Assembly (NCBI GenBank): GCA_038736825.1
Contig: JAVYME010000001.1
Span: forward strand, 76,933 to 140,932
Reading direction: 5' to 3'
Origin: Candidatus Iainarchaeum sp.
GTDB lineage: Archaea > Iainarchaeota > Iainarchaeia > Iainarchaeales > DTGL01
DNA length: 64,000 nt
This document shows positions 1-29,317 of this stretch, piece after piece; position 1 is the first letter of the stretch; each line of letters begins with the position of its first letter. The translations under genes were made by a program, and so were the position numbers. The notes under the pieces were generated by a model. That model was not told the origin of the DNA. It did not search any database and was given only the letters and a program-made list of their open reading frames with translations.

Positions 1-279
1 TGAGCAAAATAAAGAGGTAGAATTAACAAAAACGAAAGCAATAATGCCATTAAAAAAATCTTGCGGTTTGAAGCCATGAAAACCACTCAAAACCCAAAAC
101 AAATACAACATTCCAGTATTTAATATTTCCGTATGAATGCAAAGGGTTTGACTGCTGTTGCAATCTCAAAAAAAAAAAGCCAGCAAATGCAACATTGGAC
201 TGTTTTATGGGTTTGACAAAAAAAAGCAATAAATGGCTTTTTATTTTTTTATGCGTTTTTTTGTTAGAGGGCATAGCGC

Positions 280-723
280 ATGATTTCCGAAATAGAAATG
301 CTGGTAAGGCTTGTTGTTGCCACGCTTTTGGGCATGATGGTTGGCTATGAAAGGGAGATAAGCGAAAAGCCGGCTGGCATAAGGACTTTTGCAATAGTTT
401 CAATTGGAGCCTGCCTTTTTGCAATAATTGGCTTGATTATAGCTGAAGGTAACACTGATGGAAGCATTGACAATACCAGGATTGCCGCAGGCATTGTCAG
501 CGGCATAGGTTTTTTGGGCGCTGGTGTTCTATTTCACTCTGAAAACAAGGTTTTAGGGCTTACAACTGCGGCTGGAATTTGGGCAATGGGGGCTGTAGGG
601 CTTGCTGTTGGCTTGGGTTATTATTTGGCAGCCACTCTTGCAACTGCCCTAATATACATTGTTCTCTTTTCAGGAAGGTTTTATGGCAAAAACCCAATAG
701 CAGTAAAAAAAGAAAAAAAATAA
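280..723 (+). CDS. mgtC: MgtC/SapB family membrane protein
   Basis: Translation contains MgtC-family motifs (YEREISEKPAGIRTF..., GIVSGIGFLGAG, GLTTAAGIWAMGAVGLAVGLG). 147 aa with four hydrophobic helices. Confidence 0.7.
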   Translation: MISEIEMLVRLVVATLLGMMVGYEREISEKPAGIRTFAIVSIGACLFAIIGLIIAEGNTDGSIDNTRIAAGIVSGIGFLGAGVLFHSENKVLGLTTAAGIWAMGAVGLAVGLGYYLAATLATALIYIVLFSGRFYGKNPIAVKKEKK

Positions 724-1011
724 TGCAAGGCAAAATGCAAACCGGCAGTTTAAGGGATTTTAAAAATTGGTTGAATTCAAAAAGTCGTTTGCACAAACCA
801 GTGAAAGCCGCAATACCAACAATAAAAGAAATAATTGCAATTCATTCAAAAACTCCAAGCAAAACCGGTTTTTGCGTTCAGTGAAACATTTATATTTATT
901 TCTGTTTACTATGAATAGAGTTTCCAAAATTGCTTGAATAGATATCTTTGTGGCGATTTTTGCGGCTTTATTGGCTTTCCCTCAGCTTTGGTGAATCCCT
1001 CCTGAAATCGT

Positions 1012-1299
1012 TTGCTAAGGTGCCGGGAACGCAAAACGCCAGTTTTTCCGGTGAAACACGTGGCAGAAAAAACCGAACAAGAAGAAGAAAACTTTTTAGT
1101 GCCAAAACATTTCTTGGTAGATGAAGCCGAAGCAACAGCCCTTCTTGCAAGGCTTGACTGCAAAAAAGAAAACCTGCCAGGCATACTAAAGACAGATCCT
1201 GCAATAAAAAAACTCAAAGCCAAAAAAGGAGACATTATAAGGATTGAACGGAATTCTCCAACTGCAGGAAAAGCGATTTATTATAGGGTTGTAAGGTAA
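1012..1299 (+). CDS. rpoH: DNA-directed RNA polymerase subunit H (Rpb5-like)
   Basis: VPKHFLVDEAEATALLARLDCKKENLPGILKTDPAIKKLKAKKGDIIRIERNSPTAGKAIYYRVV matches archaeal RpoH. Sits directly upstream of rpoB. The true start may be an internal GTG; the N-terminus is uncertain. Confidence 0.85.
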   Translation: MLRCRERKTPVFPVKHVAEKTEQEEENFLVPKHFLVDEAEATALLARLDCKKENLPGILKTDPAIKKLKAKKGDIIRIERNSPTAGKAIYYRVVR

Positions 1300-1301
1300 A
1301 G

Positions 1302-2786
1302 GTGTTTGTGGTGACTGAATTTGACAAATGGCCATTGATTGACAATTATTTCCGCAATAGAACCTTTGCAGACCTTGAAATACAGTCCTTTAACCAGTTC
1401 GTGGAAGAAAAACTTCCAGAAATAGTGGTGGAAAACCAAGACATAAGCCCAAAAATAGAAGAAGTGCGAGTGGAGGTTGCAAACATAGAGGTTTTAAGGC
1501 CGCGCGTTGTTGAAGCCGATGGCTCTCCAAGAAACGATTTTTGGCCAATAGAGGCACGCATAAGGAATCGCACTTATTCTGGACCAATTTATCTGGATAT
1601 GCGTTTGCTGCGAAGGGATGTAGAGCAGGACGTGAAAAGAGCCTATGTGGGCGAACTGCCAATAATGCTTAAATCCAACAAGTGCTGGCTTTACGGAAAA
1701 ACCCCAGAAGAACTAATTGAAATGGGTGAAGATCCTTTAGATTTCGGGGGCTATTTTATAATCAATGGCTCGGAAAAAGCACTCATGACTCAAGAAGTGC
1801 TTAGCTCTGACCGAGTAATGATTTCTGAAAAGGTTCGAGGAGACGTCATAGCAGAAGTAATCAGCACTCGCGGAGCATTCAAGGGCCGCGTGAGAGTCAT
1901 GAGGAAAAAAAACGGCTTGCTTTATGTAAGGTTTCCCAGTTCGCCAAAAAAACTCAAATTGTTTGTGCTCATGAGAGCCCTTGGAATGGAATCCGAAAAC
2001 GACATAAAAGCAGCCTTCACAATCGGTGAAGAACAAGTCCAAAATGATGTGCTCTTGAACCTAGAACAAACCGAAATAACAAAAGAAAAGGACGCTCTTG
2101 ACAAGATAGGGAAAAGCGTTGCCCCAGGCCAAGTAATAGATTACAGGCTGAAAAGAGCCCAAGAAGTGGTTGATGGTTTTTTGCTTCCACACATTGGGCA
2201 AAGCAAAAGCGACAGAATTGCAAAAGCATACTATTTGGGAATGATGGCTTCAAAAGCAATAGAAAGAGCCTATGGTTTGAGGGAAGAGGATGACAAAGAC
2301 CATTATGCAAACAAAAGGCTTGAATTGTCCGGCAAGCTCATGGAGCACCTTTTCAGGTATGCTTTCAAGTATTTCGTTAAAGACTTGAAATTCCAAATAG
2401 ACAGGACTGTAACGAGGAGAAGAAAACTCAACATTAGCACAGTGGTTAGACCTGATGCAATAACTGAAAGAATCAGGTTTGCAATGTCCACTGGCAACTG
2501 GATTGGCAGAGCCACTGGTGTAAGCAAATTCATGGACCGCGTGAACTATTTGAGCCCTTTAACCGATATAAGGAAAGTCAAAAGCCCATTGAACAAAAAC
2601 AGGGAATTATATGAAGCAAGAGATGTCCATGGAACACACTGGGGAAGAGTTGACTCTGTTGAAACCCCGGACGGACCGCAATGCGGTTTAGTGAAAAACC
2701 TTTCCTTGATGGCAAGAGTCACCACTGACAGCCGCACTGAAACAATAGAGGAAATGCTTAAAGCAAAGGGAGTGAAACTAGACTAG
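1302..2786 (+). CDS. rpoB2: DNA-directed RNA polymerase subunit B'' (N-terminal half of split Rpb2)
   Basis: 494 aa with Rpb2 N-terminal lobe/protrusion-like sequence. Followed immediately by the B' half; split B subunit as in euryarchaeal/DPANN-type archaea. Confidence 0.9.
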   Translation: MFVVTEFDKWPLIDNYFRNRTFADLEIQSFNQFVEEKLPEIVVENQDISPKIEEVRVEVANIEVLRPRVVEADGSPRNDFWPIEARIRNRTYSGPIYLDMRLLRRDVEQDVKRAYVGELPIMLKSNKCWLYGKTPEELIEMGEDPLDFGGYFIINGSEKALMTQEVLSSDRVMISEKVRGDVIAEVISTRGAFKGRVRVMRKKNGLLYVRFPSSPKKLKLFVLMRALGMESENDIKAAFTIGEEQVQNDVLLNLEQTEITKEKDALDKIGKSVAPGQVIDYRLKRAQEVVDGFLLPHIGQSKSDRIAKAYYLGMMASKAIERAYGLREEDDKDHYANKRLELSGKLMEHLFRYAFKYFVKDLKFQIDRTVTRRRKLNISTVVRPDAITERIRFAMSTGNWIGRATGVSKFMDRVNYLSPLTDIRKVKSPLNKNRELYEARDVHGTHWGRVDSVETPDGPQCGLVKNLSLMARVTTDSRTETIEEMLKAKGVKLD

Positions 2787-2801
2787 GTTTTTTGAATAAA
2801 G

Positions 2802-4628
2802 GTGTGCTTTATGGCGAAAGGCAATGCAAAGGTTTACATTAATGGAAGGCTTATAGGATTCCATCCAGCACCGGAAAAACTCACTCAAGAACTCATTGAG
2901 GCAAGAAGACAGGCAAAAATAGACTCTCAAATAAACATTGCATTAAACGAAATGACAAACGAAATATACATTAACACTGATTCCGGCAGAGTGCAAAGAC
3001 CAGTGATTGTGGTTAAAGACGGAAAACCACTGTTAACCGAAAAACACGTTGAAAAAGTAAAAAACAATGAACTGTCATGGGATGACCTTGTAGAACAAGG
3101 CATAATAGAATACCTTGACGCAGAAGAAGAAGAAAACGCAATGATTGCCACAAAAGAATCCGAACTCACAAAAGAACACACTCACATGGAAATAGAACCT
3201 GCTGGCATCCTGAGCGTCATAACAAACCTCATTCCATTTGTGAGCCACAACCTTAGCGGAAAAGCATTGCATGGCGCAAAAATGTTCAAACAAGCAGCAG
3301 GCATAGGGCAAATAAACTACAATCTAAGAACGGACACTGAAGGCTATTTATTGCACTACCCGCAAAAAAACCTTGTAAAAACCAAAACAATGGACTTAGT
3401 GCACATGGAATCAAGGCCTCAAAACCAAAACTTTGTAGTAGCAATCTTGCCCTATTACGGTTTCAACACTCTTGACGCAGTAGTAATAAACAAGGGCGCT
3501 GTTGAAAGAAGCCTTGGAAGAATGGCTTACTTTCGCACTTATGAAGCCATGCAAACCAGATACCCCGGCGGGCAAAGAGACAAATTTGAAGTTCCAAGCG
3601 AGGAAACAGTTGGCTACCTTGGAAAAGAATACTATCACGCTTTAGGAGAAGACGGCTTTGCAGAAATAGAATCAAAAGTGAACGGCAAAGATGTAGTAAT
3701 AGGCAGAACCTCTCCACCAAGATTCCTTGAAGAAGTCAGCGAATTCGGGGTAGTAAAAGAAAGAAGACGCGAATCCTCAATTACCGCAAGAAAAGGAAAA
3801 GAAGGATTTGTGGACAAAATATTCATTACAGAAAGCACTGACGGCGACATGCTTGTCAAAGCAAAAATCAGGAGCGACATGAGCCCAGAAGTGGGTGACA
3901 AGTTCTCTTCAAGGCATGGCCAAAAAGGAGTTGTCGGCGCAATAGTGCCGGAAGAAGACATGCCCTTTACAGCAGACGGAATAAAACCAGATTTGCTCTT
4001 GAACCCACACTCTATTCCAAGCAGAATGACAATAGGGCACTTGTTGGAAATGCTTGCCGGAAAAGCCGCTTGCATGAACGGCGAAATAGTTGACGGCACT
4101 CCATTCAAGGACGCAAAAAGAAGCGAGCTAGAGCAAATCCTTTTCGAGCACGGTTTCAGGCCGGACGGCAGAGAAGTCCTTTACGATGGAATTTCCGGTC
4201 AAAGAATAGACGGCAAAGTCTTCATAGGAGTGGTTGGATACAGGCGCCTTTACCACATGGTTGCCCACAAAATGCAGGCAAGAGCGCGCGGTCCAGTGCA
4301 AATACTTACAAGGCAACCAACAGAAGGAAAAGAAAAAGAAGGCGGTTTAAGGTTTGGGGAAATGGAAGGCGAAACCCTAGTAGGACACGGTGCAAGCATG
4401 CTCTTGCAAGAAAAATTCATAGATGACTCTGACAAAGTAGTGGAACTGGTTTGCGAAAAATGCGGAATAATTGCAGTCAACGACAAGATAAGGAACAAAA
4501 AATATTGCCCGGTTTGCGGTAGTTCAAGGGTTTACGGAGTGGAAATGAGTTATGGCTTTAAATTGTTGCTGGATGAACTCAAAGCGTTGGGCGTTTACCC
4601 AAAACTCAACTTGGTGGACAAAGCATAG
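2802..4628 (+). CDS. rpoB1: DNA-directed RNA polymerase subunit B' (C-terminal half of Rpb2)
   Basis: Contains GQKGVVG..., the NPHSIPSRMTIGHLLE motif and a C-terminal Zn-ribbon CEKCG...CPVCG. 608 aa. Confidence 0.95.
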   Translation: MCFMAKGNAKVYINGRLIGFHPAPEKLTQELIEARRQAKIDSQINIALNEMTNEIYINTDSGRVQRPVIVVKDGKPLLTEKHVEKVKNNELSWDDLVEQGIIEYLDAEEEENAMIATKESELTKEHTHMEIEPAGILSVITNLIPFVSHNLSGKALHGAKMFKQAAGIGQINYNLRTDTEGYLLHYPQKNLVKTKTMDLVHMESRPQNQNFVVAILPYYGFNTLDAVVINKGAVERSLGRMAYFRTYEAMQTRYPGGQRDKFEVPSEETVGYLGKEYYHALGEDGFAEIESKVNGKDVVIGRTSPPRFLEEVSEFGVVKERRRESSITARKGKEGFVDKIFITESTDGDMLVKAKIRSDMSPEVGDKFSSRHGQKGVVGAIVPEEDMPFTADGIKPDLLLNPHSIPSRMTIGHLLEMLAGKAACMNGEIVDGTPFKDAKRSELEQILFEHGFRPDGREVLYDGISGQRIDGKVFIGVVGYRRLYHMVAHKMQARARGPVQILTRQPTEGKEKEGGLRFGEMEGETLVGHGASMLLQEKFIDDSDKVVELVCEKCGIIAVNDKIRNKKYCPVCGSSRVYGVEMSYGFKLLLDELKALGVYPKLNLVDKA

Positions 4629-16388: not shown

Positions 16389-17639
16389 TTGTGCATTACA
16401 TTGCATTGTTTTGACTCTTGTGAAGGTGAAAAATTGGAAAAATCTGGAAAAAAAGGAACTATCGTGTTTTTACTAATTACACTTTTAGTTGCACAAGTTT
16501 TTGCTGCAGATTGCCTGGATTGGATGGAATCACAATCTGGAAAAGAAGTGGGAGACAATATGAATGATGACGGCGTTTTAGGACCTGGGGAAACACTCGC
16601 AAATAATAAAACAAATAAGCCTGGAGAAATCGGAGTTAATAATGCAAGTACTGTTAAACAAATTGGCGAGAACTACATTAATGGCTCAACTGTGCCTGTA
16701 ACAATATCAAACGATAATGGCACAACAGTACAGACAGACCCAAACCTAAAATATGAACTCACTCCAATTTGGGGTTACAGCAAAGAGTACGGATTTTACG
16801 TTAGCGGTTGGAAAGTCAGTGCTGTGGAAGAGGAAACTGAAAAAGATCTGGATTTTGGTGAGGGTTGGACTCCAGTTAGTCCGACTCCAAAGCCTGTGAC
16901 CCCTACTCCAACTCCAACGATAACTCTAACGCCAACACCTACGCTAACCCCTCTCCCAAACCAAGCACCAACCGCAGACTTTGAAATGTATCCAGAGCCA
17001 GCAAATGGCATGGTTCCTTTGACTGTAAAGTTTAAAGATAAAAGTTTTGACCCAGACGGTTCCATTGTTTCATGGAATTGGGAGTTCGGGGTAGGTACAA
17101 TTGAAGGAACAAATTGTTGCACAAATAAGGAAACAAGCCATGTTTACACTTCAGCTGGCTATTATACTGTCCGGCTAACCGTAACAGACAACTTGGGGGC
17201 AACAGCATCTAATCAAAAATCTATAATTGCAATACAAAAAGCGGCAATAACAATTTTCAAATCAAACAATCCAGAAAACCCAAACCAGCCAGCACAAATT
17301 ATTATTGCATGCGGCAAGCAGGCAGCCCTCCAATTGGAATTCCTTGACAAGGACAGCCAGCCACTTTCCGGAGTTCCAACTCAACTAATGGATGGAGCTC
17401 ACGGCCTGCCATTTTGCAATATCACACCTACAATTCTCAACATAACTGGCTTTCCAAAACCAGGGCTTTATCAAATAAAGGCAAACATTCTTGGAGAGGA
17501 GTGCACTAATTGTCCAAAAACGATCCACATAGTTGTCGGTCAAGAAATGCCAGAACTCCAAACTCCAGAAATCCCAGCAATACTAACCGCAGTAATCGCA
17601 CTTGCAGTGATTGTCATCACAAACAGGAAAAAGAAATAA
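16389..17639 (+). CDS. secreted surface protein with Thr/Pro linker, PKD domain and conserved C-terminal sorting signal (PEIPAIL-TM-NRKKK)
   Basis: Signal peptide (alternative TTG start at 16434). TPTPKPVTPTPTPTITLTPTPTLTP linker. PKD-type domain (PTADFEMYP...GMVPLTVKF...WNWEFG). The C-terminal ~35 aa are almost identical to the 27182..29317 protein. Confidence 0.75.
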   Translation: MCITLHCFDSCEGEKLEKSGKKGTIVFLLITLLVAQVFAADCLDWMESQSGKEVGDNMNDDGVLGPGETLANNKTNKPGEIGVNNASTVKQIGENYINGSTVPVTISNDNGTTVQTDPNLKYELTPIWGYSKEYGFYVSGWKVSAVEEETEKDLDFGEGWTPVSPTPKPVTPTPTPTITLTPTPTLTPLPNQAPTADFEMYPEPANGMVPLTVKFKDKSFDPDGSIVSWNWEFGVGTIEGTNCCTNKETSHVYTSAGYYTVRLTVTDNLGATASNQKSIIAIQKAAITIFKSNNPENPNQPAQIIIACGKQAALQLEFLDKDSQPLSGVPTQLMDGAHGLPFCNITPTILNITGFPKPGLYQIKANILGEECTNCPKTIHIVVGQEMPELQTPEIPAILTAVIALAVIVITNRKKK

Positions 17640-17700: not shown

Positions 17701-19275
17701 CTATTTTTTTCCTTTTTTTTCTTGTGTTGATTTTTTTAACAATAGTTCTCTTTCTTGTTGTAGTTTGAGGAGTCTTTCCCTGTAAGCGCTTTCTGAAAGC
17801 CGTCTCTTGAAAAAATCCAGTTTTGCTTTTTTTTCAAGTTCTGAAATTTTTTCAAGGCGCCTTTCAATGGAGCGCTTTTCCAGTTGCTTGAGTTTTTTTC
17901 TCCAAAAAAATGCTGAAATTGAAAGAATTAAGGCTGTTATTCCGCCTCCAAAAACAATTATTTTGCCCCAATCTATGGGTTCAATTATTTCTGTTGAAAT
18001 CTTTGCTTTTCCTGAAAAAGGCGGTTTTAAAACAATTTCAATGGTGTGGGTTCCCTGTAAAGCAAATGGCAGGCTTGCAGAGCAAAAGCCTTTTTCAGTG
18101 CAGGAAAGAGTAATTGAGTGCTGTTTTTCGTCAATGTAAAGCAATGCTTCAACCTCATTGCTTGCAACTTGTTGTCCTTCCACTTGTACTTCTATTTTTG
18201 TAGCTCCGCCACGACTTTCAGTTCTGCCTTCCATTGGGAAAACGAACAAAACCTGGTTTTCAGTCGGGCTTGCCCCTTCTGGAGAAAGCATTTCAAGAGA
18301 AAAACTGTTTTTTTCAGTTTTTGTTCCAGAAGCGTTTTTGCCTGAAACAGTTATCTTCAATTCACTGTCTTTCTCGCTAACGGGGCGCGTGAATTCTGCA
18401 CTCCAGGCTCCTCCTGCAAAAGACAATTTTTTTCTTTCCAGTATTTTTTCTTTTGACAAAAGCCAAGCCTCAAAATCCCCGCTGTTGACAACAGTTTCTT
18501 TTTGGTGAAGAGAAAAGGAAATTTTTCCAACAGGCGAGCCAAAAAAATATTTCTGTTCTTCATTGAAGGGATTGCGGACTTGAATGGTTGCTGGCTTGAA
18601 GAAAAGCGGAATGAAAAAAGTTTTTTCCTTTGAGCCTGCAAGCGCTGCCTTCAATTCCAGTTTTTCAAATTCTTCAAAGGAAGCGTCTGGAACAAAAGAG
18701 CCTTCCAAAAAAAGGTTTTTGGAATCCCATTGCAAGGCAATGCTTTTGCCTTTTATTAAGGCACTAAAATGGGAAAAGGCTTCCTTTTCACTTGAACCCA
18801 AAAACCTTTGAATGTAGGAATTGTCTTTGTCCAAGAAAGCAATACGTATCTTTTTTTCAACTCCTGTTTCGATTGCAATATCCTGTCTTGCCTCTGAAGA
18901 GGGCGGCAAAAATGCTTTGAATTCAGTTCTCGTGATTCGCACTGGCACTGTTTTTTCCCCTAAAAGCATGCCGTTGTCCTTAAGCTTTATTTGTGCTTTT
19001 ACTTGAAAGGTTTTCGGGGAAAAATCTATTGCTTCAAGGTAATATGCATGGCTTGCAAAAGGGCTTTCGGTTGAAATTTCAGTGCCATCCCCAAAACTCC
19101 AAACAAAATCCAAAACGCTTTCAGGAAAATTTTCCAGCTTTAAATTGAAATCCACTGCTTGCGCTTCAAATGCCTCGCTAGTGCTCGCTGAAAGCCCGAA
19201 ATCAAGCGAGCTATGGGCAAATGGCAAAAGCAAGAAAAGAAAGGCTGCCAAAAAAAGGCTTTTTGCCATTTTCAC
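17701..19275 (-). CDS. type-I membrane surface protein (PKD-like repeats) with coiled-coil K/E/R-rich cytoplasmic tail
   Basis: N-terminal signal peptide, WSFGDGTE PKD-like motif and a C-terminal TM (ITALILSISAFFW). The tail LEKKAKLDFFKRRLSESAYRERLLKL is homologous to the tail of the upstream 1059-aa protein. Its stop overlaps the next gene's start by 4 nt. Confidence 0.7.
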   Translation of the reverse strand: MKMAKSLFLAAFLFLLLPFAHSSLDFGLSASTSEAFEAQAVDFNLKLENFPESVLDFVWSFGDGTEISTESPFASHAYYLEAIDFSPKTFQVKAQIKLKDNGMLLGEKTVPVRITRTEFKAFLPPSSEARQDIAIETGVEKKIRIAFLDKDNSYIQRFLGSSEKEAFSHFSALIKGKSIALQWDSKNLFLEGSFVPDASFEEFEKLELKAALAGSKEKTFFIPLFFKPATIQVRNPFNEEQKYFFGSPVGKISFSLHQKETVVNSGDFEAWLLSKEKILERKKLSFAGGAWSAEFTRPVSEKDSELKITVSGKNASGTKTEKNSFSLEMLSPEGASPTENQVLFVFPMEGRTESRGGATKIEVQVEGQQVASNEVEALLYIDEKQHSITLSCTEKGFCSASLPFALQGTHTIEIVLKPPFSGKAKISTEIIEPIDWGKIIVFGGGITALILSISAFFWRKKLKQLEKRSIERRLEKISELEKKAKLDFFKRRLSESAYRERLLKLQQERELLLKKSTQEKKGKK

Positions 19276-22200
19276 CTCTCCTTGTAAAGCCTTGCCAAAA
19301 CCATTTCAATTACTTTTTCACTATAGCCCTCGTTTCTAAGCCCTCTTGCCACCTCTTCTCTTGAAAACTCTCCGATTCTTCCGCAAAGTCTTGTTGTGAG
19401 CACTATGGCTTGAACTTTTTCAGGCGCTTTCTTGAAATCCTTTGAGGGAAAAACTGTTTTCCAAAAGCCTGTTTTAATCCAAAAACCGCTTTTTAATAGA
19501 GAATCAATGCATTTCAGTCCTTTGCTTAAAAGCCTTATTTGTTCGCCGAGCTCGCTTTCAGAAATATGCCTTTTGAAAAACTCAAACTTGTATTTTTTCT
19601 CCAGTCCAGTCAAGCGCTCTTTTTCCCTAAGCAAGAAAGCCCTTTCAGAAAAAACATTTCTTAAAAGCAATGCAAGGAAAACCAGGATTACAATGCAAGC
19701 AAAACCGAAAGCCAGCAAAGCAAGGCTTAAGCCTTGCTCAATGGTTGCAATAACTGTTCCTTCTCCAGAAAAATCTTCTTTTAAAACAAGCTTGAGTGAA
19801 TGCGTTCCAGCCAGCAAGGGCGAACTCAAAACCCCCTTGTGCAATTTTTCTTTTTCGTCAAACTTGAGTGAAACAGGCTGCAGGTTGCCGTCAACCAGCA
19901 AATCGCTGTTCAATGCAATGTTGGCAAACAAGTGGTTGTTGGGCTGGAAAAACCTAACACTTATCTCGCTTATTTTGCCATTCCAGGGCTTGTTCAAGCC
20001 AGCGCTGGGTTGAACAAAAACCATTTGCAGGTTGTTTGAAAGTGAAATTGTTAAAAACTCTAAATCCATCAATTCTTTGCCGTCAAGAGTGGCGTGTGCT
20101 TCAAGCCGGCAGCTCACGCTTTTTTTGCCAGAATCCTGCAATGGCAAAAGGATTTTCGCAGAATATTGCTGGCTTTCTTTATCAAAATCCATTTCCTCCA
20201 AAAAATCCAGTTCAGGGCATTCCACAATGATTTTTTTGTTTTTAACCTTGTAATTGTCTGAAAGAATTTTTGCCTTCAAGTTAACTGTTTGCCCGAAAGC
20301 ATACTCGCGCTCACTGTTCACTGGCTCCAATATTGAAATAACCAGTGCCGAGTTTTTTGCAAGCGGAACCGCTTGCACTTCATCAACCTTGTTGCCTGCA
20401 GCATCCCTGCCCTTCAATTTCAACTTTAAACCATGCAAAAAATCGGTTTCATTCACAGTATGGTCAAAATAAAGCGTGTAATCAAACTCGTTTTTTTCAA
20501 TTCTCACTTCTTCCTCTTTTTTGCCTGAAACAAGCACTGCCCTTAACTCGCTTGGAAAAACCACGATTATGCCGTTCAACAAAAACATTACTTTGGCTTT
20601 TTCAAGGGAATCAAGCAAAAAATATTTTTTGCCCTTGAAGACATTGGTTGCCTTGAAAAAAGAAGGCTCAAAAAACACTGGCGCTTTTGCATGGAACTCG
20701 CGCTTTTCCCCCTTAACCTCACTCAAAGCATGAATTTCCAAGAATTCAGTTTCAGAAAGCGAACTCCAAGGCTTAAAAATTCCCTCAAAAATTGTTCCAG
20801 AACAATGCATTTCAACCAGCGAGCCAGCAAGCAAAACCCTGAGCGAAATTCCTTGACAAGCAATCCTTTCATCGGCTTCATCCAAAAACTCCAAGCGCAC
20901 ATTCAAATCCCTTTGCTTTGAATTTGTCTGCACATGGGTTGGCTCCAAAACTCTTGCCTTAAACTTGGACTTTAAAACCTTAACCTTAACCTCTGCGCCT
21001 GCAGTCTGCCCTTTGGAATCACTAACGCGAACCTTCACCAAAAACTCTCGCTCTTTCTCCAAACCCAAAAAATAAGCGTGAAATGCCTCTCTCTGGCTTG
21101 CATTAGAGTCATCACCGAAATCCCAGAAAAATTCAAGCGACTCTTCATTCAAAGCATTAGTGATTGCAGTGAAATAAAAATATTGTCCTTCAAATTGCTG
21201 CCTGCTTTCAGGGTCAACCAGTACTGTCAAAACCTGCAATGGCTCGTCCTTTAAAGAAGTTTTAAAGGACAAAACAGGGCTTTCCCTTGAAAGGCTTTGC
21301 GTTGAAGAAACTGCCTTGAAAAAATAGTTTGTTTCCGGTTTCAATCCAAGCAAGTGGATTTTGTGGTGAATTGTTTTAGTGCCGTCAAAAACCCTTGAAC
21401 CCAAAGCACTGGTTTCACCGAACTCCACTGCAGAATCGGATTGCACTAAAGTGTTCCAGTAAACCTTTGCATGAGTGGCAAAAGCAAAAACCTGAACATT
21501 TTTTGGATCAATATCCTGCAATCCTGCTTTCAAAATGCAGCGGTTTTCTTGACTGCAATAAAAGCCTTCCTCGCACTTTGCAGTGCAATCAATTTTTTGC
21601 CCGCAATTATTGCTTTTAGAACCACACTCGCTCTCGGAACACGAAAGGGCTTTGCAGCATTTTCCATTAATGCAATTCCAGCCAGCACTGCAAGAGCACT
21701 GAATTGTGCCACCGCAATCATTTGAAAAAGAACCGCATTGTCCTGCAAAATCCCTTGAACACGACTTGCAGGATTGCAAGCATTTCCCGTTCAAGCAACC
21801 CCCCGAACAAAACTCGCTTTCAATCCTCGAGCAATCCGCATTAGAGTAAACCCTTGTAGAACCAGAACAAAACCATCCTTGAACACAAGGTTGAAGCAAA
21901 CCACTAGAAGCAGCACTAGAACCCTGTGGTTTGCACTCAGGACACAAAGAACTGCCATCACCTGATTGTGATAAATTTTGTCCTGGCATTTGATAAACAG
22001 CTGCAGGAGAGCCCTTAGCTTTTGATTGCAAATAATCATCATATGGGTCGCCCCCCTTAGACAAATCCTCATAAGAACCACCGGCAGGTGCCGCTCCATC
22101 ATCTTGTCCTAGCTCATTTACTCCTCCTGTAGCTCCTGTTTGACTCAAGCCATCATCATTTTGGACAAAAGTTGGAGTGGAAGCGCCATCAGCAGCCCCG

Positions 22201-22451
22201 CTAGGCAAACTTGGGCCAGGCGAGTTGTTAGTTGGGGGATTGAGTGCGTCGTCTGAAACAGGGCAATCTGGACAGTAGTATGCGCCTGTGCCTTCGGTTA
22301 CAGCAAAATATGCTGTTTTTTCTTTAGGCAAGGCTAATGAAAAGAAACCGGTTTTTTCGCTTAAAATGGTTTCATAAAACAGCCAGGTTATGGCTAGCAC
22401 TAAAACTATTGCCAACAAAAAGGCAGGCTTTTTTGAAAAAACTGAAGGCAT
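19272..22451 (-). CDS. giant type-I membrane surface protein: acidic G/D/S/P-rich region, Cys-rich EGF/laminin-like module, FN3/PKD-like repeats, TM and ~150-aa cytoplasmic tail
   Basis: 1059 aa with signal anchor and a run of CxxxxC repeats (CSGGCLNGKCLQSCKSC...CGQKIDCTAKCEEGFYC). WDFGDDSNA PKD-like and PETNYFFKAVS FN3-like motifs. C-terminal TM followed by LEKKYKFEFFKRHISESELGEQIRLL. Confidence 0.75.
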   Translation of the reverse strand: MPSVFSKKPAFLLAIVLVLAITWLFYETILSEKTGFFSLALPKEKTAYFAVTEGTGAYYCPDCPVSDDALNPPTNNSPGPSLPSGAADGASTPTFVQNDDGLSQTGATGGVNELGQDDGAAPAGGSYEDLSKGGDPYDDYLQSKAKGSPAAVYQMPGQNLSQSGDGSSLCPECKPQGSSAASSGLLQPCVQGWFCSGSTRVYSNADCSRIESEFCSGGCLNGKCLQSCKSCSRDFAGQCGSFSNDCGGTIQCSCSAGWNCINGKCCKALSCSESECGSKSNNCGQKIDCTAKCEEGFYCSQENRCILKAGLQDIDPKNVQVFAFATHAKVYWNTLVQSDSAVEFGETSALGSRVFDGTKTIHHKIHLLGLKPETNYFFKAVSSTQSLSRESPVLSFKTSLKDEPLQVLTVLVDPESRQQFEGQYFYFTAITNALNEESLEFFWDFGDDSNASQREAFHAYFLGLEKEREFLVKVRVSDSKGQTAGAEVKVKVLKSKFKARVLEPTHVQTNSKQRDLNVRLEFLDEADERIACQGISLRVLLAGSLVEMHCSGTIFEGIFKPWSSLSETEFLEIHALSEVKGEKREFHAKAPVFFEPSFFKATNVFKGKKYFLLDSLEKAKVMFLLNGIIVVFPSELRAVLVSGKKEEEVRIEKNEFDYTLYFDHTVNETDFLHGLKLKLKGRDAAGNKVDEVQAVPLAKNSALVISILEPVNSEREYAFGQTVNLKAKILSDNYKVKNKKIIVECPELDFLEEMDFDKESQQYSAKILLPLQDSGKKSVSCRLEAHATLDGKELMDLEFLTISLSNNLQMVFVQPSAGLNKPWNGKISEISVRFFQPNNHLFANIALNSDLLVDGNLQPVSLKFDEKEKLHKGVLSSPLLAGTHSLKLVLKEDFSGEGTVIATIEQGLSLALLAFGFACIVILVFLALLLRNVFSERAFLLREKERLTGLEKKYKFEFFKRHISESELGEQIRLLSKGLKCIDSLLKSGFWIKTGFWKTVFPSKDFKKAPEKVQAIVLTTRLCGRIGEFSREEVARGLRNEGYSEKVIEMVLARLYKER

Positions 22452-25457: not shown

Positions 25458-25895
25458 ATGGATTTTTTTTTGGGTTCAGACCATGGCGGGTATCCCTTAA
25501 AGGAAAAAGTCAAAAAATGGCTGGAAAGCGAAGGCCATTCAATAAAAGATTTTGGCTGTTTTTCAGTGGAAAGCTGTGATTATCCCGAGTTTGCTGAAAA
25601 GGTTGCAAGAGCAGTTACAAAAAATAAAGATTCAATTGGATTGCTTTTTTGCGGCACTGGAATTGGCATGAGCATTGCAGCAAACAAAATCAAGGGAATA
25701 CGGGCAGCACTCTTGCATAACGCTTTTGAGGGAAAAATGGCAAAAGAGCACAACAATGCAAACGTGCTCTGCTTTGGAGGCAGAACTGTTTCTTTCAGGA
25801 ATGCAAAAAAGGCAATCACTGCTTTTTTAAAGGCAGAATTTGTGGGCGGCAGGCATTTGCGGAGAATAGAAAAAATTGCAGCACTCGAGAGATGA
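25458..25895 (+). CDS. rpiB: ribose-5-phosphate isomerase B (RpiB/LacA family)
   Basis: LGSDHGGYPLKE...FCGTGIGMSIAANKIKGIRAAL is characteristic of RpiB. 145 aa. Confidence 0.9.
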   Translation: MDFFLGSDHGGYPLKEKVKKWLESEGHSIKDFGCFSVESCDYPEFAEKVARAVTKNKDSIGLLFCGTGIGMSIAANKIKGIRAALLHNAFEGKMAKEHNNANVLCFGGRTVSFRNAKKAITAFLKAEFVGGRHLRRIEKIAALER

Positions 25896-26317
25896 AAATG
25901 TTTGAATTGTTTGAGCACAAGGCAGACATTGGAGTGCGCGGTTATGGAAAAACGCTTGAAGAAGCCTTTCAAGAGTGCGCGAAGGCAATGTTCAGCGTAA
26001 TGTCAAACCTGAAAAAAGTCAAAGCCAGAGAAAGCATTGAATTGCGAGTTAGAGCGAGAAATGAAGAAGAATTGCTTGTTGCCTGGTTAAACGAATTATT
26101 GTTTGAAAAAGGCACAAAAGAAATGCTGTTCTCTGAATTCAAAGTGAAAATTTCAAAGGAAAAAGAAGGACTGGTTTTGAAAGGCACAGTGAAAGGCGAA
26201 AAAATGAACCACAAAAAACATGAAATGAAAACAGAAGTCAAAGGAGCAACCTATTCTGGCTTGAAAGTGATTAAAGAAAAAGAAAAGTATTTAGCGCAAT
26301 GCATTGTCGATGTATAA
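25892..26317 (+). CDS. archease (RtcB ligase activator)
   Basis: MFELFEHKADIGVRGYGKTLEEAFQECAKAMFSVM matches the archease N-terminal signature. 141 aa. Overlaps the rpiB stop. Confidence 0.85.
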   Translation: MKMFELFEHKADIGVRGYGKTLEEAFQECAKAMFSVMSNLKKVKARESIELRVRARNEEELLVAWLNELLFEKGTKEMLFSEFKVKISKEKEGLVLKGTVKGEKMNHKKHEMKTEVKGATYSGLKVIKEKEKYLAQCIVDV

Positions 26318-26379: not shown

Positions 26380-27185
26380 TTGAGAATGAAAAGATTTGGT
26401 TTTTTGCCTTCAGTTTTTTACTGTCTCGCCATGTTCGGCTTGATTTTCACGCTAGTGGCAGCCCAAGAAGAAGTAAGGCAGCTTTCCATTAAAATTGAAG
26501 GCTTGCGCTATGTAAGGCATGAAACAGTAACCATTACGGCGCTTTTTGATGGGCAACCCGTTGCTGGCGTTGATGTAAATGTTTTTTTCAAAGATTTGAA
26601 CCTGAAAAAACAGACCAAAACAAAATAATATTGCAAAGAATAGAAGATTATAAGACAGACAGTCAAGGCAAGTTTTCCTTTAAATTGCATGAAGCCGGCA
26701 CTTACTTTTTATTTTTTGCCAAAAAAGAAGGAACCATTTTTTACGCAGCAAGCGAAAAAATAGATTTTTTGATAAATCCAAGACCATATTTCAGTGCAAG
26801 CAATGGCGTTTACAATCTTTGCTTTAGGGAACCAATTGGCTCAATAACAATCATTGAAGGCGAGAAAAGAACAACCCAAAGCCTTGATGAAAACAATTGC
26901 ACTCAATACTCTCCAAAAACAGAGTCCTTCACAGTTGAAACCCCTTACAGCAAAGAATTCAAAAAGATTTCAATACCAGTAAAAGTTGAAACAGAAAAAC
27001 CAACCCCTGTCCCAACACAACCCACTCCAATACAAACACAATTTGAAGAAAAAACAAAGCCGATTTCACAACCAAAAACACAAACCCAGCCAGACTTACT
27101 GTTACCTATCAGCATATTGTTAGTTGCAAGCATATGCTTGGTTGCTGCAGGAGTTTACCTCAGAAAACGGAGGATGAATTCATGA
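26380..27185 (+). pseudogene. frameshift-interrupted gene for a small surface protein (signal peptide + carboxypeptidase-regulatory/transthyretin-like beta-sandwich + Thr/Pro linker + C-terminal TM anchor)
   Basis: Two consecutive ORFs (26380..26628 in frame 1, 26631..27185 in frame 0) together encode one domain (VTITALFDGQPVAGVDVNVFF | YKTDSQGKFSFKLHEAGTYF). Frame 0 is open from 26574. A T7 run (26582-26588) and an A6 run (26605-26610) lie in the overlap. Confidence 0.5.
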
Positions 27186-29317
27186 AAAAAATACTCTTTG
27201 TTTTGGCTCTTTTTTTAATGCTTTCCTGTGCCAATGCAGCAAAAAAAATCCAGCTCACTGTAGAAGACGACGGCATTGACCCAGTAACCCCAGAAGAAGA
27301 TGCTGACACAAAAGACAAAGCATACCTTGTAGTAGGACCAGGGCCTTACACTTTGACAGTCAAAATCCAAAACTTGCAGGAAATAGAAGAGTTTGGCGGT
27401 CCAGTTGATGTAATGGCTTTATTTGATGCCAGTTATAGCTTTAATGATGAAATCGAGGTTGTCAAAAATGACATAGAAAAACTTGGAGCAGAACTGGATC
27501 AAAACTGCCAAAAAATAGGCATTCCGGGGTGCTTCAATTTAGGGCTTTACGTTTTTGAAGGAGGCACTTGCGCTAGAAATTGTTCCAACCAATATGTTTG
27601 CACTCAAATAAATTGCAGAATAGTCACAGTTAAAGATTGGTGCACTGAGTGTACTGTAATAACAATTCCAGGCAAGTGCCAAGTTTGCGATTATGAAACT
27701 GAATGCCGTGAGGTTTGTGAATTGCGTGATAACGTGAAAGTATGCTGGCCAGAGTGCCACGAAGTGCCAAAAAACTGTCGAATGGAGCCATGTGACACAT
27801 ACAAGTGGGATTGCAAACTAGTGCCTTGCTTTGTAGAAGAAGAGGTATGCGATGAACATTGTGAATGGCAAGAAGTTTGTGGTTGGACTGTGTGCAAAAG
27901 GCCTGATGCTGCTTTTTGGAATTCCACTGATTTCCAGCAACCAGTGACTCCGCCATTGCCTTTGGATTATGCAAACGATGTTGGCTTGCTTCCCATAACA
28001 AACAATATGACGCTTGTCAAAAACAACTTGGAAAAAATTAGTGCTCCAAACTTTTCAACACAACAGCTAGAGCCATGGGGTAGCATTATAACCTATGTTT
28101 TGAATGCACCTGAAGTAAAATGGCAGGAAAACCACCGGAGGGCAATAATATTAATCACGGATGAAAAAGATGATTCTGGCACTTACAAGACTGCAGCACA
28201 ACTTGCAAAAGACCAAAACGTGGTTGTGTTCGGCATTATTGGAAAAGGAGTGGGTTCAGATGAAGCGAAAGCCAATGCTGAATATGTTGCAAACCTGACA
28301 GGCGGAAAGGTTTTCACTTATACAAATTCTGAAGAAATAAAAGCCCTATTGCGTGAAATAATGGGCTCACTCATAAAAGAAGACACTTTTGTTTTTTCAA
28401 AAGAATTAGGGCCTAACTGGGATGGAATAACTGCAAATTTTGATCTGCCGCCGGTTCCAAGAAAGGGACCCGGACTTGTTTACCCAATCAAGGGCCTTGC
28501 TCCAGCGGTTTGGCCTACAACTGAGGAATATTTCCATTACAGGGTTTCCTTGAAAAGCAATCCGGCTGTTTTTGATGATGCTTGGGTTAGAGTGACCATT
28601 AATACGCCGCCAACTGCCGATTTTGAAATGATTCCAACTCCGCCAACTGGAATGGTGCCTTTAAGCGTAAAATTCGTCAACAAATCAACAGACAACGAAG
28701 GAAACATTACAAACTACCATTGGGTTTTTGGCGATCCATCTTCAGGAGCAGACAATGAAAGTAATGAAGAAAACCCAACACACGTTTTCCAATATGCTGG
28801 AGAATATTCAGTCACTCTTACAGTAACCGACAGCGGGCAAGCAAGTCACAGTGTTACAAAAAAAGTCATGGCAAAAGAAAGGCCCCTAATTTCTGCGTTC
28901 AAGGCGAATAATCCCAAGACACCAGATGAAGGACTGGACATCACGGTTTACTGCACAAAATTCCAAGCCTTAATCAAAATAGAAATACTGGACAAGGATG
29001 GATTGTTGGTGACAAAGGACAAAGACGGCAACCCCATAACAAACCCAATAAAAATTCCTGGAACAAATGATTGGCCGAGATGCGGAAGCACCATTAGCCC
29101 TGACATCAGGCTTTCAAGCGGAGTCTACCAAATAAGGGCAACAATAATGAAAGATGATGGCAGCGGTCCAGACCCGGATTGCACTAATTGTCCGAAAAGC
29201 ACACACATAACCGTGGGAATGAGCGCACCAGAAATGCAAACCCCAGAAATTCCAGCAATACTAACAACAATAATAGCGCTTGCAGTGATTGTCATTACAA
29301 ACAGGAAAAAGAAATAG
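27182..29317 (+). CDS. secreted multidomain surface protein: vWA-like domain (MIDAS DxSxS) with Cys-rich insertion, PKD domain, conserved C-terminal sorting signal (PEIPAIL-TM-NRKKK)
   Basis: Start chosen at MKKILFVLALFLMLSCANA, preceded by GGAGG. LFDASYSFNDE (DxSxS), AIILITDEKDD, VVVFGIIG. 26 Cys within ~120 aa. PTADFEMIPTPPTGMVPLSVKF PKD. C-terminus is near-identical to the 16389..17639 protein. Confidence 0.75.
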   Translation: MKKILFVLALFLMLSCANAAKKIQLTVEDDGIDPVTPEEDADTKDKAYLVVGPGPYTLTVKIQNLQEIEEFGGPVDVMALFDASYSFNDEIEVVKNDIEKLGAELDQNCQKIGIPGCFNLGLYVFEGGTCARNCSNQYVCTQINCRIVTVKDWCTECTVITIPGKCQVCDYETECREVCELRDNVKVCWPECHEVPKNCRMEPCDTYKWDCKLVPCFVEEEVCDEHCEWQEVCGWTVCKRPDAAFWNSTDFQQPVTPPLPLDYANDVGLLPITNNMTLVKNNLEKISAPNFSTQQLEPWGSIITYVLNAPEVKWQENHRRAIILITDEKDDSGTYKTAAQLAKDQNVVVFGIIGKGVGSDEAKANAEYVANLTGGKVFTYTNSEEIKALLREIMGSLIKEDTFVFSKELGPNWDGITANFDLPPVPRKGPGLVYPIKGLAPAVWPTTEEYFHYRVSLKSNPAVFDDAWVRVTINTPPTADFEMIPTPPTGMVPLSVKFVNKSTDNEGNITNYHWVFGDPSSGADNESNEENPTHVFQYAGEYSVTLTVTDSGQASHSVTKKVMAKERPLISAFKANNPKTPDEGLDITVYCTKFQALIKIEILDKDGLLVTKDKDGNPITNPIKIPGTNDWPRCGSTISPDIRLSSGVYQIRATIMKDDGSGPDPDCTNCPKSTHITVGMSAPEMQTPEIPAILTTIIALAVIVITNRKKK

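Follow-up and report, generated by a model that had tools for sequence, protein, structure and literature searches.

The window (the whole stretch of 64,000 nucleotides that was analysed) contains an open reading frame at 27182..29317 of the forward strand, the position given for it in the preliminary description of this DNA, and its 711-amino-acid product matches an NCBI MAG protein of Candidatus Diapherotrites at 100% identity. The ATG start at 27182 has a GGAGG upstream and overlaps the stop of the preceding gene as ATGA. Scans of the window for tRNA genes and against Rfam found nothing. The product reads in order as a signal peptide, the N-terminal segment of a beta-sandwich, a vWA domain carrying a hairpin insert, the C-terminal segment of the sandwich, a PKD domain, a Cys-containing beta domain and a transmembrane (TM) anchor, with the following features:

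26380..27185, + strand: partner gene, for a signal-peptide and TM-anchored beta-sandwich protein of ~266 amino acids
27182..29317, + strand: whole gene, for a type-I surface protein of 711 amino acids
27182..27238, + strand: signal peptide MKKILFVLALFLMLSCANA, by direct reading
27239..27397, + strand: N-terminal strands (residues 20-72), which with residues 401-476 make up the beta-sandwich flanking the vWA, in a layout resembling the integrin hybrid domain
27398..27562, + strand: N-terminal part of the vWA (residues 73-127; Pfam, alignment and hhalign), with beta1, DASYS (27425-27439), the acidic pair D89/E90, helix 1, the pair C109/C117 and beta2, which ends in the invariant E126
27563..27901, + strand: inserted cystine-ladder hairpin, predicted (residues 128-240, 20 Cys; AF2, mirrored cysteines and absence from ten relatives)
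27563-27727, + strand: hairpin arm 1 (residues 128-182; AF2)
27728-27733, + strand: hairpin turn, D183-N184 (AF2)
27734-27898, + strand: hairpin arm 2 (residues 185-239; AF2)
27902..27973, + strand: Pro-rich return linker to beta3 (residues 241-264), PDAAFWNSTDFQQPVTPPLPLDYA (alignment and AF2)
27974..28381, + strand: C-terminal part of the vWA (residues 265-400; Pfam VWA, alignment and hhalign to integrin beta3), with beta3 (NDVGLLPIT), the invariant E297-P-W (28070-28078), W314 of a GWR-like motif, beta4 with D327 (28145-28171) and beta5 (VVVFGIIG)
28382..28609, + strand: C-terminal segment of the beta-sandwich (residues 401-476; alignment and AF2)
28619..28876, + strand: PKD domain, approximately residues 480-565 (Pfam and matches to PDB collagenase PKD domains)
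28877..29221, + strand: membrane-proximal beta-rich domain with four conserved cysteines (C591, C634, C667 and C670; CTNCPK)
29240..29314, + strand: C-terminal anchor TPEIPAILTTIIALAVIVITNRKKK, with a P-E-x-P motif, a TM helix and a basic tail

The PKD domain (PF18911/PF00801) scored well above threshold in Pfam (PKD_4, 55.6 bits with the cut-off at 27, E 5.7e-15; PKD, 36.5 bits with it at 23.5) and matched the PKD domains of collagenase structures (E 8e-9 to those of ColH, 4e-10 to an isolated ColH PKD domain). Together with the signal peptide and the C-terminal TM helix with its basic tail, it indicates a location at the cell surface. A lipobox at C16 was considered and rejected, as this cysteine is not conserved (P0003 has no Cys there). 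The membrane-proximal Cys-containing domain also occurs in the open reading frame at 16389-17639 of the same window.

The adjoining upstream gene is split here by a 1-nt frameshift, at an A-run near 26620-26630. At all loci examined (the window and L001, L002, L003, L004 and L005) a partner gene of ~260 codons overlaps the start of the gene for the vWA protein, and the partner protein gives weak matches to DUF4198, SdrD_B or CarboxypepD_reg. No FG-GAP protein of the beta-propeller, alpha-subunit type adjoins the vWA gene at the locus; one could be encoded elsewhere.

The assignment of the head to the vWA family had been based on short motifs, all of which are present in the translation: DASYS at residues 82-86, IILITDEKD at 322-330, and VVVFGIIG. 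In the native protein, Pfam VWA (PF00092) matched residues 283-389 at 27.7 bits (cut-off 23.8), with the match confined to the profile's C-terminal half. When residues 128-264 were exchanged for a short linker, the score rose to 34.5 bits and the match extended over profile positions 1-171 of 174. AF2, supplied with a 16-sequence alignment, predicted the Rossmann-like alpha/beta fold of a vWA domain with a mean pLDDT of 87.2 (an earlier run on three sequences, with a pLDDT of 57.9, was superseded), flanked by N- and C-terminal strands of a single beta-sandwich. The top 21 Foldseek matches to this model were all integrin beta chains (E 3e-12 to 1.5e-10), with a small margin over generic vWA chains. 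Alignment by hhalign to residues 109-359 of integrin beta3 (probability 92.7%, E 4e-7) paired D82/S84/S86 with D119/S121/S123, D89/E90 with D126/D127, and D327 with D251.

The metal site was described beforehand as an intact MIDAS, which is correct in part. D82, S84, S86 and D327 are invariant in 16 of 16 family members; the same 16 proteins share no invariant MIDAS Thr, and in its place stands the invariant E297 of the EPW motif, which hhalign sets one residue off E220 of integrin beta. The invariant E126 likewise lies one position off integrin beta D158, and equivalents of N215/D217 are not conserved. We infer a MIDAS-type vWA head nested in a beta-sandwich, the closest solved structure to which appears to be the integrin beta headpiece, and which would bind a metal ion. 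The resemblance covers the vWA placed between the two halves of one sandwich, as predicted by AF2, the DxSYS motif with an acidic pair three residues on, the Glu in place of Thr before helix 3, the GWR-like Trp, the beta4 Asp, the position of the insert, and the overall plan of a type-I membrane protein with a short tail. Beyond the head the two proteins differ. The place of the PSI, I-EGF and beta-tail domains, none of which was detected, is taken here by the PKD and Cys-containing beta domains (PKD is the sole Pfam match on the C-terminal side of the head), no Cys occurs between residues 17 and 108, and the cytoplasmic tail, NRKKK, has no NPxY motif. The partner is a small CarboxypepD_reg/DUF4198-like protein instead of a beta-propeller alpha subunit. 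Pfam Integrin_beta (PF00362) stayed below its cut-off of 24.8 bits with the native protein (15.8 bits) and after removal of the insert (20.1 bits), matching profile positions 5-42 only (38 residues). Several other proteins combining a vWA with a beta-sandwich align over 245-267 residues, namely ITIH1 (6fpy), the archaeal ArnB/ArnAB (5a8j/8s05), Sec23/24 and a Catenulispora protein (4fx5); ITIH1 has itself been described as integrin-like (PMC7170535).

Between the MIDAS motif and the central strand lies the dense cysteine cluster that first drew attention to this gene. It is real and far above chance: 20 of the 113 residues of the insert (128-240) are Cys (17.7%), versus 1.15% in the other 47 open reading frames of the window. 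The figure of 26 cysteines previously given for the module is wrong, as that many are reached only over the full mature protein (C16, in the signal peptide, makes 27); the string quoted at the time, C140 to C238 (99 amino acids), has 18, and residues 109-238 have 22. The isolated module gave no Pfam match even at E<=10.

An exhaustive search with residues 1-470 revealed the family to which this protein belongs. By comparison, a word-indexed search with the whole protein was swamped by PKD domains and gave two true homologues, a profile search of the word-indexed database with alignment A2 gave four proteins only, and a search for related loci with alignment A1 gave one locus per collection. 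The family comprises 30 matches in a set of 1.84 billion cluster representatives; those of its members that have a name are all Diapherotrites. Six sequences form an insert-bearing subfamily, with an insert of 113-170 residues in the beta2-beta3 loop (125-170 residues more than in relatives); the same loop has 8-20 amino acids in eight relatives, two further relatives carry unrelated inserts of 46-49 amino acids at the same site, and another clade has a different insert of ~125 amino acids. Measured from VFEG to EPW, the distance is 172-218 amino acids in the six insert-bearing proteins and 38-50 in most of the shorter relatives. The exhaustive search gave no hairpin-centred matches outside the subfamily. 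Judged from these alignments, the Cys-rich segment is a lineage-specific insertion and the loop a hot spot for varied inserts. That the cluster interrupts the vWA, as proposed from the sequence, is borne out by the full-length profile match recovered upon its removal and by ten relatives that have no Cys-rich insert. Its suggested proximity to the ligand-binding face holds as well, for hhalign places the insert in the specificity-determining loop (SDL) of integrin beta3, between beta2 and beta3; in established integrin structures this loop lies on the metal-site face. The sequence of the insert has diverged much further than its surroundings, with a non-Cys identity to P0002 of 24% versus 60-70% in the flanking domains.

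AF2 predicted two continuous strands for the insert, residues 128-182 and 185-239, with pLDDT values of 83-93. AF2 tends toward long hairpins on unfamiliar sequence; the sequences of the homologues lend the hairpin independent support. In all six insert-bearing proteins a conserved D-[DN]-V turn has the same number of cysteines on either side (10/10, 9/9, 9/9, 9/9, 6/6 and 10/10; product of binomial probabilities 4.5e-5). The odd number per arm in three of them rules out purely intra-arm pairing. Mirroring was assessed outward from the aligned turn by a rank-matched distance test, in which the k-th Cys of one arm was compared with the k-th of the other for how far each lies from that turn. The mean mismatch was 1.0-3.0 residues versus 5.2-7.9 under the null (p 5e-5 to 0.04), although these permutation p-values overstate independence because the six sequences share descent. 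This test replaced a palindromic dynamic-programming score of Cys symmetry, which reached significance in P0001 and P0002 alone (z ~4.6) and was too strict for divergent homologues. Moreover, P0002 has lost both the d1=30 and the d2=33 positions, which are those of the predicted partners C154 and C216, and has kept their sequence neighbours C157 and C211. Local pairing would leave P0002 with two unpaired cysteines. Cross-strand disulfides require non-hydrogen-bonded pair positions in a hairpin, and a two-residue turn at D183-N184 would put the first rungs (d=5 and d=9) at such positions. Two other architectures were rejected: a helical alpha-hairpinin (CX3C...CX3C), given that a helix would not keep the cysteines on a single face, that V, T and P are abundant and that AF2 gives strands; and a pore-forming stem, given a net charge of -7 and no alternating hydrophobic pattern.

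We therefore put forward, with somewhat better than even confidence, the view that this protein is a surface adhesin of a Diapherotrites (DPANN) archaeon, with a MIDAS-type vWA head and a rigid ribbon arm stapled by ten disulfides. The insert would form one antiparallel two-stranded ribbon of approximately 55 residues per arm, with cross-strand disulfides C179-C188, C175-C192, C169-C199, C166-C204, C157-C211, C154-C216, C145-C223, C140-C227, C134-C233 and C130-C238. If straight, the ribbon would reach ~15-19 nm off the ligand-binding face; it may kink, as the predicted strands contain five prolines. With hypervariable arms, and with the ladder, base and D-N-V tip conserved, it may act as a rigid and chemically robust arm that provides reach or specificity for metal-dependent adhesion to a cell or surface. 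The adhesin probably works with the co-translated, membrane-anchored partner from the adjoining upstream gene. A role in attachment to a host is not a given, as an independent lifestyle has been proposed as possible for Candidatus Iainarchaeum (PMC6349945).

Alternatively, the hairpin could be real but architectural, serving as a strut or spacer in the envelope or oligomerising edge to edge into a sheet or lattice. Two-stranded ribbons do have free edges, hypervariable arms are what a solvent-exposed element under little sequence constraint would show, and the stalk cassette is common to several surface proteins of the same genomes, which suggests a common envelope layer. We nevertheless consider an architectural role unlikely: the insert occupies exactly the loop that corresponds to ligand specificity, next to a metal-site motif conserved throughout, its charge and lack of hydrophobic alternation do not favour such a role, and relatives without the insert retain the same head and stalk, so that the envelope can be assembled without the arm.

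The preliminary description envisaged a knob. A compact knob rich in disulfides on the vWA, or small Cys-rich domains of EGF, TNFR or granulin type in a row, would account for the high density and even number of cysteines. Many extracellular Cys-rich modules are compact, and the prolines could break the strands. The predictions depart from this model. The cysteine module is a separate insertion, as had been supposed, but AF2 gives it as one long two-stranded ribbon, the mirrored and co-varying cysteines agree, and neither the mirror symmetry across six homologues nor the paired loss of a rung is expected of tandem, locally bonded domains. With no Pfam match for the isolated module in addition, we hold a knob to be improbable.

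More doubtful still is a disulfide-braced beta-solenoid resembling the Tenebrio antifreeze protein, which is built of 12-residue coils with one intra-coil disulfide each. Taken by itself, the window protein would fit a repeat or solenoid, as its cysteines stand in close pairs that recur every ~11-12 residues (gaps 3,5,4,8,2,8,2,5,3 and 3,6,4,6,4,6,3,5,4). However, in P0018 and P0019 the spacing is aperiodic yet mirrored across the turn, the loss in P0002 removed C154 and C216 and spared C157 and C211, and AF2 predicts a hairpin. Stabilisation by disulfides or metal had been left as a choice. The organism is probably anaerobic, judging from what is generally known of the group, and the insert has some CxxC and CxxxC motifs; binding of Zn or Fe-S by disulfide-free cysteines is nonetheless very hard to credit, because all six homologues have an even number of cysteines, with totals of 18 that are not multiples of 4, CxxC motifs are few and not conserved (0-3 per homologue), His residues are few (0-7), the segment is extracytoplasmic, between a signal peptide and a C-terminal TM anchor, and the mirrored pairing fits a ladder.

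Known systems offer partial parallels to the stapled ribbon proposed here. The integrin SDL has ~30 residues and one disulfide, versus 113 residues and ten predicted disulfides in this insert. The vWA tip adhesins of Gram-positive and type V pili (RrgA, GBS104 3txa, SpaC 6m48, PitA 7w6b and Mfa5 6tnj) have much shorter arms and no disulfide ladder, and are bacterial, sortase-anchored through LPXTG and equipped with isopeptide domains. Pfam found no CnaB/Ig isopeptide domains here, and the C-terminus, without an LPXTG signal, consists of P-E-x-P, a TM helix and RKKK. Theta-defensins, protegrin, tachyplesin and gomesin share the predicted plan of two antiparallel strands with parallel cross-strand disulfides, but these are free peptides of ~18 residues with 1-3 rungs. 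In bovine antibodies with an ultralong CDR H3, a long two-stranded ribbon projects off the binding face and adds reach (PMC10523490, PMC11229553), as predicted for this protein; there the disulfides lie in a terminal knob on a short, unstapled stalk, whereas here the stalk would be stapled and the tip a simple conserved turn.

A bolder extension, which we offer as a long shot, is that the ribbon is a rigid lance of ~15-25 nm, the conserved acidic tip of which (R-D-N-V, L-D-D-V or G-D-D-V, recalling the acidic LDV- and RGD-type ligands of integrins) docks at the metal site of another copy of the protein or of a receptor on a host, and that with its partner the protein constitutes an integrin-like two-chain receptor of DPANN archaea. 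If true, prokaryotes would have an analogue, or a remote relative, of the integrin beta headpiece that bears its ligand on an arm of its own.

Looking beyond this locus, literature searches found no account of the family or of long cystine ladders, and the predicted ten-rung ribbon beside a vWA metal site appears to be a shape with no earlier description in that literature. If the prediction holds, it would be by far the longest known cystine ladder, with ten rungs versus three in theta-defensins, and a natural, free-standing, covalently stapled beta-ribbon rod extending from a vWA ligand-binding face. Such a rod would be of interest for protein design, as a rigid nanoscale spacer, and for understanding the reach of adhesins. 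The analysis also defines an uncharacterised and very rare family of surface proteins. To our knowledge, no part of DPANN biology is understood less well than the proteins of cell-surface contact, and the conserved two-gene cassette with its hypervariable arm would provide a concrete candidate in this area.

A single gene fits the vWA-like feature of the preliminary description (27182-29317, + strand). The longest ORF starts at 27134; the ATG at 27182 opens a typical signal peptide (MKKILFVLALFLMLSCANA), lies 3' of a GGAGG and shares ATGA with the upstream ORF's stop codon. The encoded 711-aa protein exactly matches the NCBI entry 'MAG: PKD domain-containing protein [Candidatus Diapherotrites archaeon]' and contains every motif that had been quoted. 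The cysteine cluster is also real, with 20 Cys in residues 128-240 (17.7%) versus 1.15% across the remaining 47 window ORFs. The earlier figure of 26 Cys in about 120 aa was wrong: the quoted string holds 18, residues 109-238 hold 22, and 26 is the count for the whole mature protein.

The product is a surface-exposed, membrane-anchored protein. All family members end in [ST]-P-[ED]-x-x-P, a TM helix and an R/K cluster (29240-29314 in the window protein, with the cytoplasmic tail NRKKK). Sorting signals of the PEP-CTERM or archaeosortase type look similar; the only NCBIfam match was a weak one to Loki-CTERM (E 0.12).

Searches with Pfam indicated that the Cys-rich segment interrupts the vWA domain, as had been proposed. 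In the native sequence only the C-terminal half of the VWA profile was matched (residues 283-389 to profile 65-171; 27.7 bits, cut-off 23.8), and Integrin_beta gave a weak match at residues 74-111. When residues 128-264 were swapped for a short linker, the VWA match became full-length (profile 1-171 of 174; 34.5 bits). Queried by itself, the Cys module had no Pfam match at E<=10.

An exhaustive phmmer search with residues 1-470 found only 30 proteins among 1.84 billion cluster representatives, 16 of which were aligned; family members with a named source are all from MAGs of Candidatus Diapherotrites or Iainarchaeum. The distance from VFEG to EPW is 172-218 residues, with 12-20 Cys, in six proteins (the window protein and its homologues P0002, P0003, P0017, P0018 and P0019), and 38-50 residues in most shorter relatives, where the overall architecture is unchanged. 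The beta2-beta3 loop itself measures 8-20 residues in eight of the shorter relatives. This site also holds unrelated insertions in P0028 (49 residues) and P0033 (46 residues), and the clade P0030, P0034 and P0035 has a different insert of ~125 residues in this loop. These sequence comparisons therefore show the Cys module to be an insertion specific to one lineage, in a loop that is an insertion hot spot. The members of that clade are longer (1149-1394 aa, 42-51 Cys), with Cys-rich C-termini that lack a TM anchor; P0030 and P0035 each contain a tandem pair of vWA heads of this type, and in all three proteins the ~125-residue insert sits at the beta2-beta3 site of the first head.

AlphaFold2 performed poorly with three sequences (pLDDT 57.9); the 16-sequence alignment gave a mean pLDDT of 87.2 and a pTM of 0.62 for residues 1-476. 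This model has a vWA alpha/beta core (residues 75-125 and 268-398), and strands on either side of it form a beta-sandwich (residues 23-64 and 403-472). The Cys module had been pictured as a possible disulfide- or metal-stabilised knob; it was instead predicted to be one hairpin spanning residues 128-239, with strands 128-182 and 185-239 and a turn at D183-N184 (pLDDT 83-93).

Integrin beta3 residues 109-359 (100% identical to PDB) were compared with the family profile using hhalign (probability 92.7%, E 4e-7). D82/S84/S86 pair with integrin D119/S121/S123, D89/E90 with ADMIDAS D126/D127, D327 with D251, and W314 with the Trp of GWR, while the invariant E126 and E297 fall one position off D158 and one residue off E220, respectively. 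The head has a conserved integrin-beta-type metal-site motif. The Cys insert maps inside the specificity-determining loop (SDL), between beta2 and beta3, and begins two residues past E126. Because the SDL lies on the metal-site face in integrin structures, the suggestion that the insert sits close to this face is supported by homology. The protein does not belong to the integrin beta subunits: the Integrin_beta match falls below threshold, the PSI, I-EGF and beta-tail domains are absent, the tail is NRKKK and the adjoining partner is not a beta-propeller.

Sequence evidence by itself points to the hairpin being a cystine ladder, with cysteines placed as mirror images on its two arms. Apart from Cys, the insert conserves only a D-[DN]-V turn, aligned in 6/6 proteins, and the Cys counts before and after it are 10/10, 9/9, 9/9, 9/9, 6/6 and 10/10 (product of binomial probabilities 4.5e-5, yet the sequences are related by descent). 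In all six, the k-th Cys lies at a similar distance from the turn on both arms; in the window protein these distances are 5,9,15,18,27,30,39,44,50,54 versus 5,9,16,21,28,33,40,44,50,55. Averaged over the rungs of each of the six proteins, the absolute mismatch between arms is 1.0-3.0 residues, compared with 5.2-7.9 for random placement (p 5e-5 to 0.04). The mirroring holds even in P0018, where spacing is aperiodic and unlike that of the window protein (7,13,30,37,45,55 versus 10,11,29,37,44,58), indicating that the rungs shift in concert. The rung that P0002 lacks lies 30 and 33 residues from the turn, exactly at the predicted partner positions C154 and C216. Cross-strand disulfides require non-hydrogen-bonded pair positions, and by established hairpin geometry a two-residue turn would put the first rungs (distances 5 and 9) on such positions. 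Three of the proteins have nine Cys on each arm, an odd number that excludes purely intra-arm pairing. Rival readings are that the module forms a compact knob or a solenoid, or that its cysteines bind metal clusters.

Non-Cys identity within the insert is 24% between the window protein and its closest homologue, versus 60-70% in the flanking domains, and 12-20% versus 35-60% for more distant homologues. At the sequence level, ladder, base and tip are conserved and the arms are hypervariable. A straight ribbon would measure ~18 nm at ~3.3 Å per residue; five prolines within the predicted strands make kinks possible.

The gene lies among archaeal housekeeping genes (RpiB, archease, RtcB, a PMT-type glycosyltransferase and a ribosomal-protein cluster):

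25892-26317: archease
26380-26628 and 26631-27185, + strand: upstream ORFs of 82 and 184 aa
29384-30826: RtcB

The two upstream ORFs are one gene with a single-base frameshift in an A-run near 26620-26630; possible explanations are misassembly, a pseudogene and programmed frameshifting. The fused 268-aa partner aligns unbroken to intact orthologues in four other loci (33-50% identity). It combines a signal peptide and a beta-sandwich domain (weak matches to DUF4198, SdrD_B or CarboxypepD_reg) with a Pro-rich linker, a TM helix and a tail of basic residues. The partner gene overlaps the vWA-gene start at every locus examined, namely the window and related loci L001 (Ca. Iainarchaeum), L002, L003, L004 and L005; L004 has a longer version beside the short relative P0028. 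The order vWA, RtcB, PMT_2 and ~400-aa surface protein recurs in L003. The upstream partner gene and the vWA gene, both encoding surface proteins, lie between archease and its functional partner RtcB.

Elsewhere in the window, 16389-17639 (+) encodes a 416-aa protein with a different N-terminal head; its C-terminal 243 residues, 45% identical to the vWA protein, cover PKD, a beta domain with four Cys and an almost identical anchor (TPEIPAILTAVIALAVIVITNRKKK). The two proteins therefore bear interchangeable heads on a common stalk cassette, and the same holds in L002 (ORF 2-3145 versus P0019). Another member of this surface-protein set may be encoded at 19272-22451 (-; 1059 aa, 33 Cys or 3.1%, with PKD and a weak match to a purple-acid-phosphatase N-domain); the gene next downstream of P0017 in L005 and L006 also encodes a 1059-aa PKD protein. 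Ladder-bearing P0017 (L005, Ga0118719_1000021, 287,762 bp) and P0047, from the cluster of short relative P0026, are both reported on contigs of 287,762 bp and may therefore occur in one genome. The ribosomal-protein region shows a strong positive AT skew (0.3-0.5), and no tRNA genes or Rfam families at the gathering threshold were detected in the 64-kb window.

Inserts near the metal site of vWA adhesins have precedents in the integrin SDL and the arms of RrgA and GBS104, and short cystine ladders are known in peptides. We found no description in the literature of this family or of a ladder this size, and phmmer with residues 1-470 gave no match mainly through the hairpin outside the six-member subfamily. 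The preliminary observation is partly confirmed and its interpretation partly supported. Overall confidence is moderate, because the disulfides, the ribbon length and the function rest on prediction and six sequences.

Host attachment is not assumed, since Ca. Iainarchaeum may be able to live independently (PMC6349945). In a rival reading, the ribbon could have an architectural or lattice role. In our preferred reading, it would be a covalently stapled rigid arm projecting from the ligand-binding face, and would carry or shape the binding specificity of a putative cation-dependent adhesin, perhaps working with its co-translated partner.
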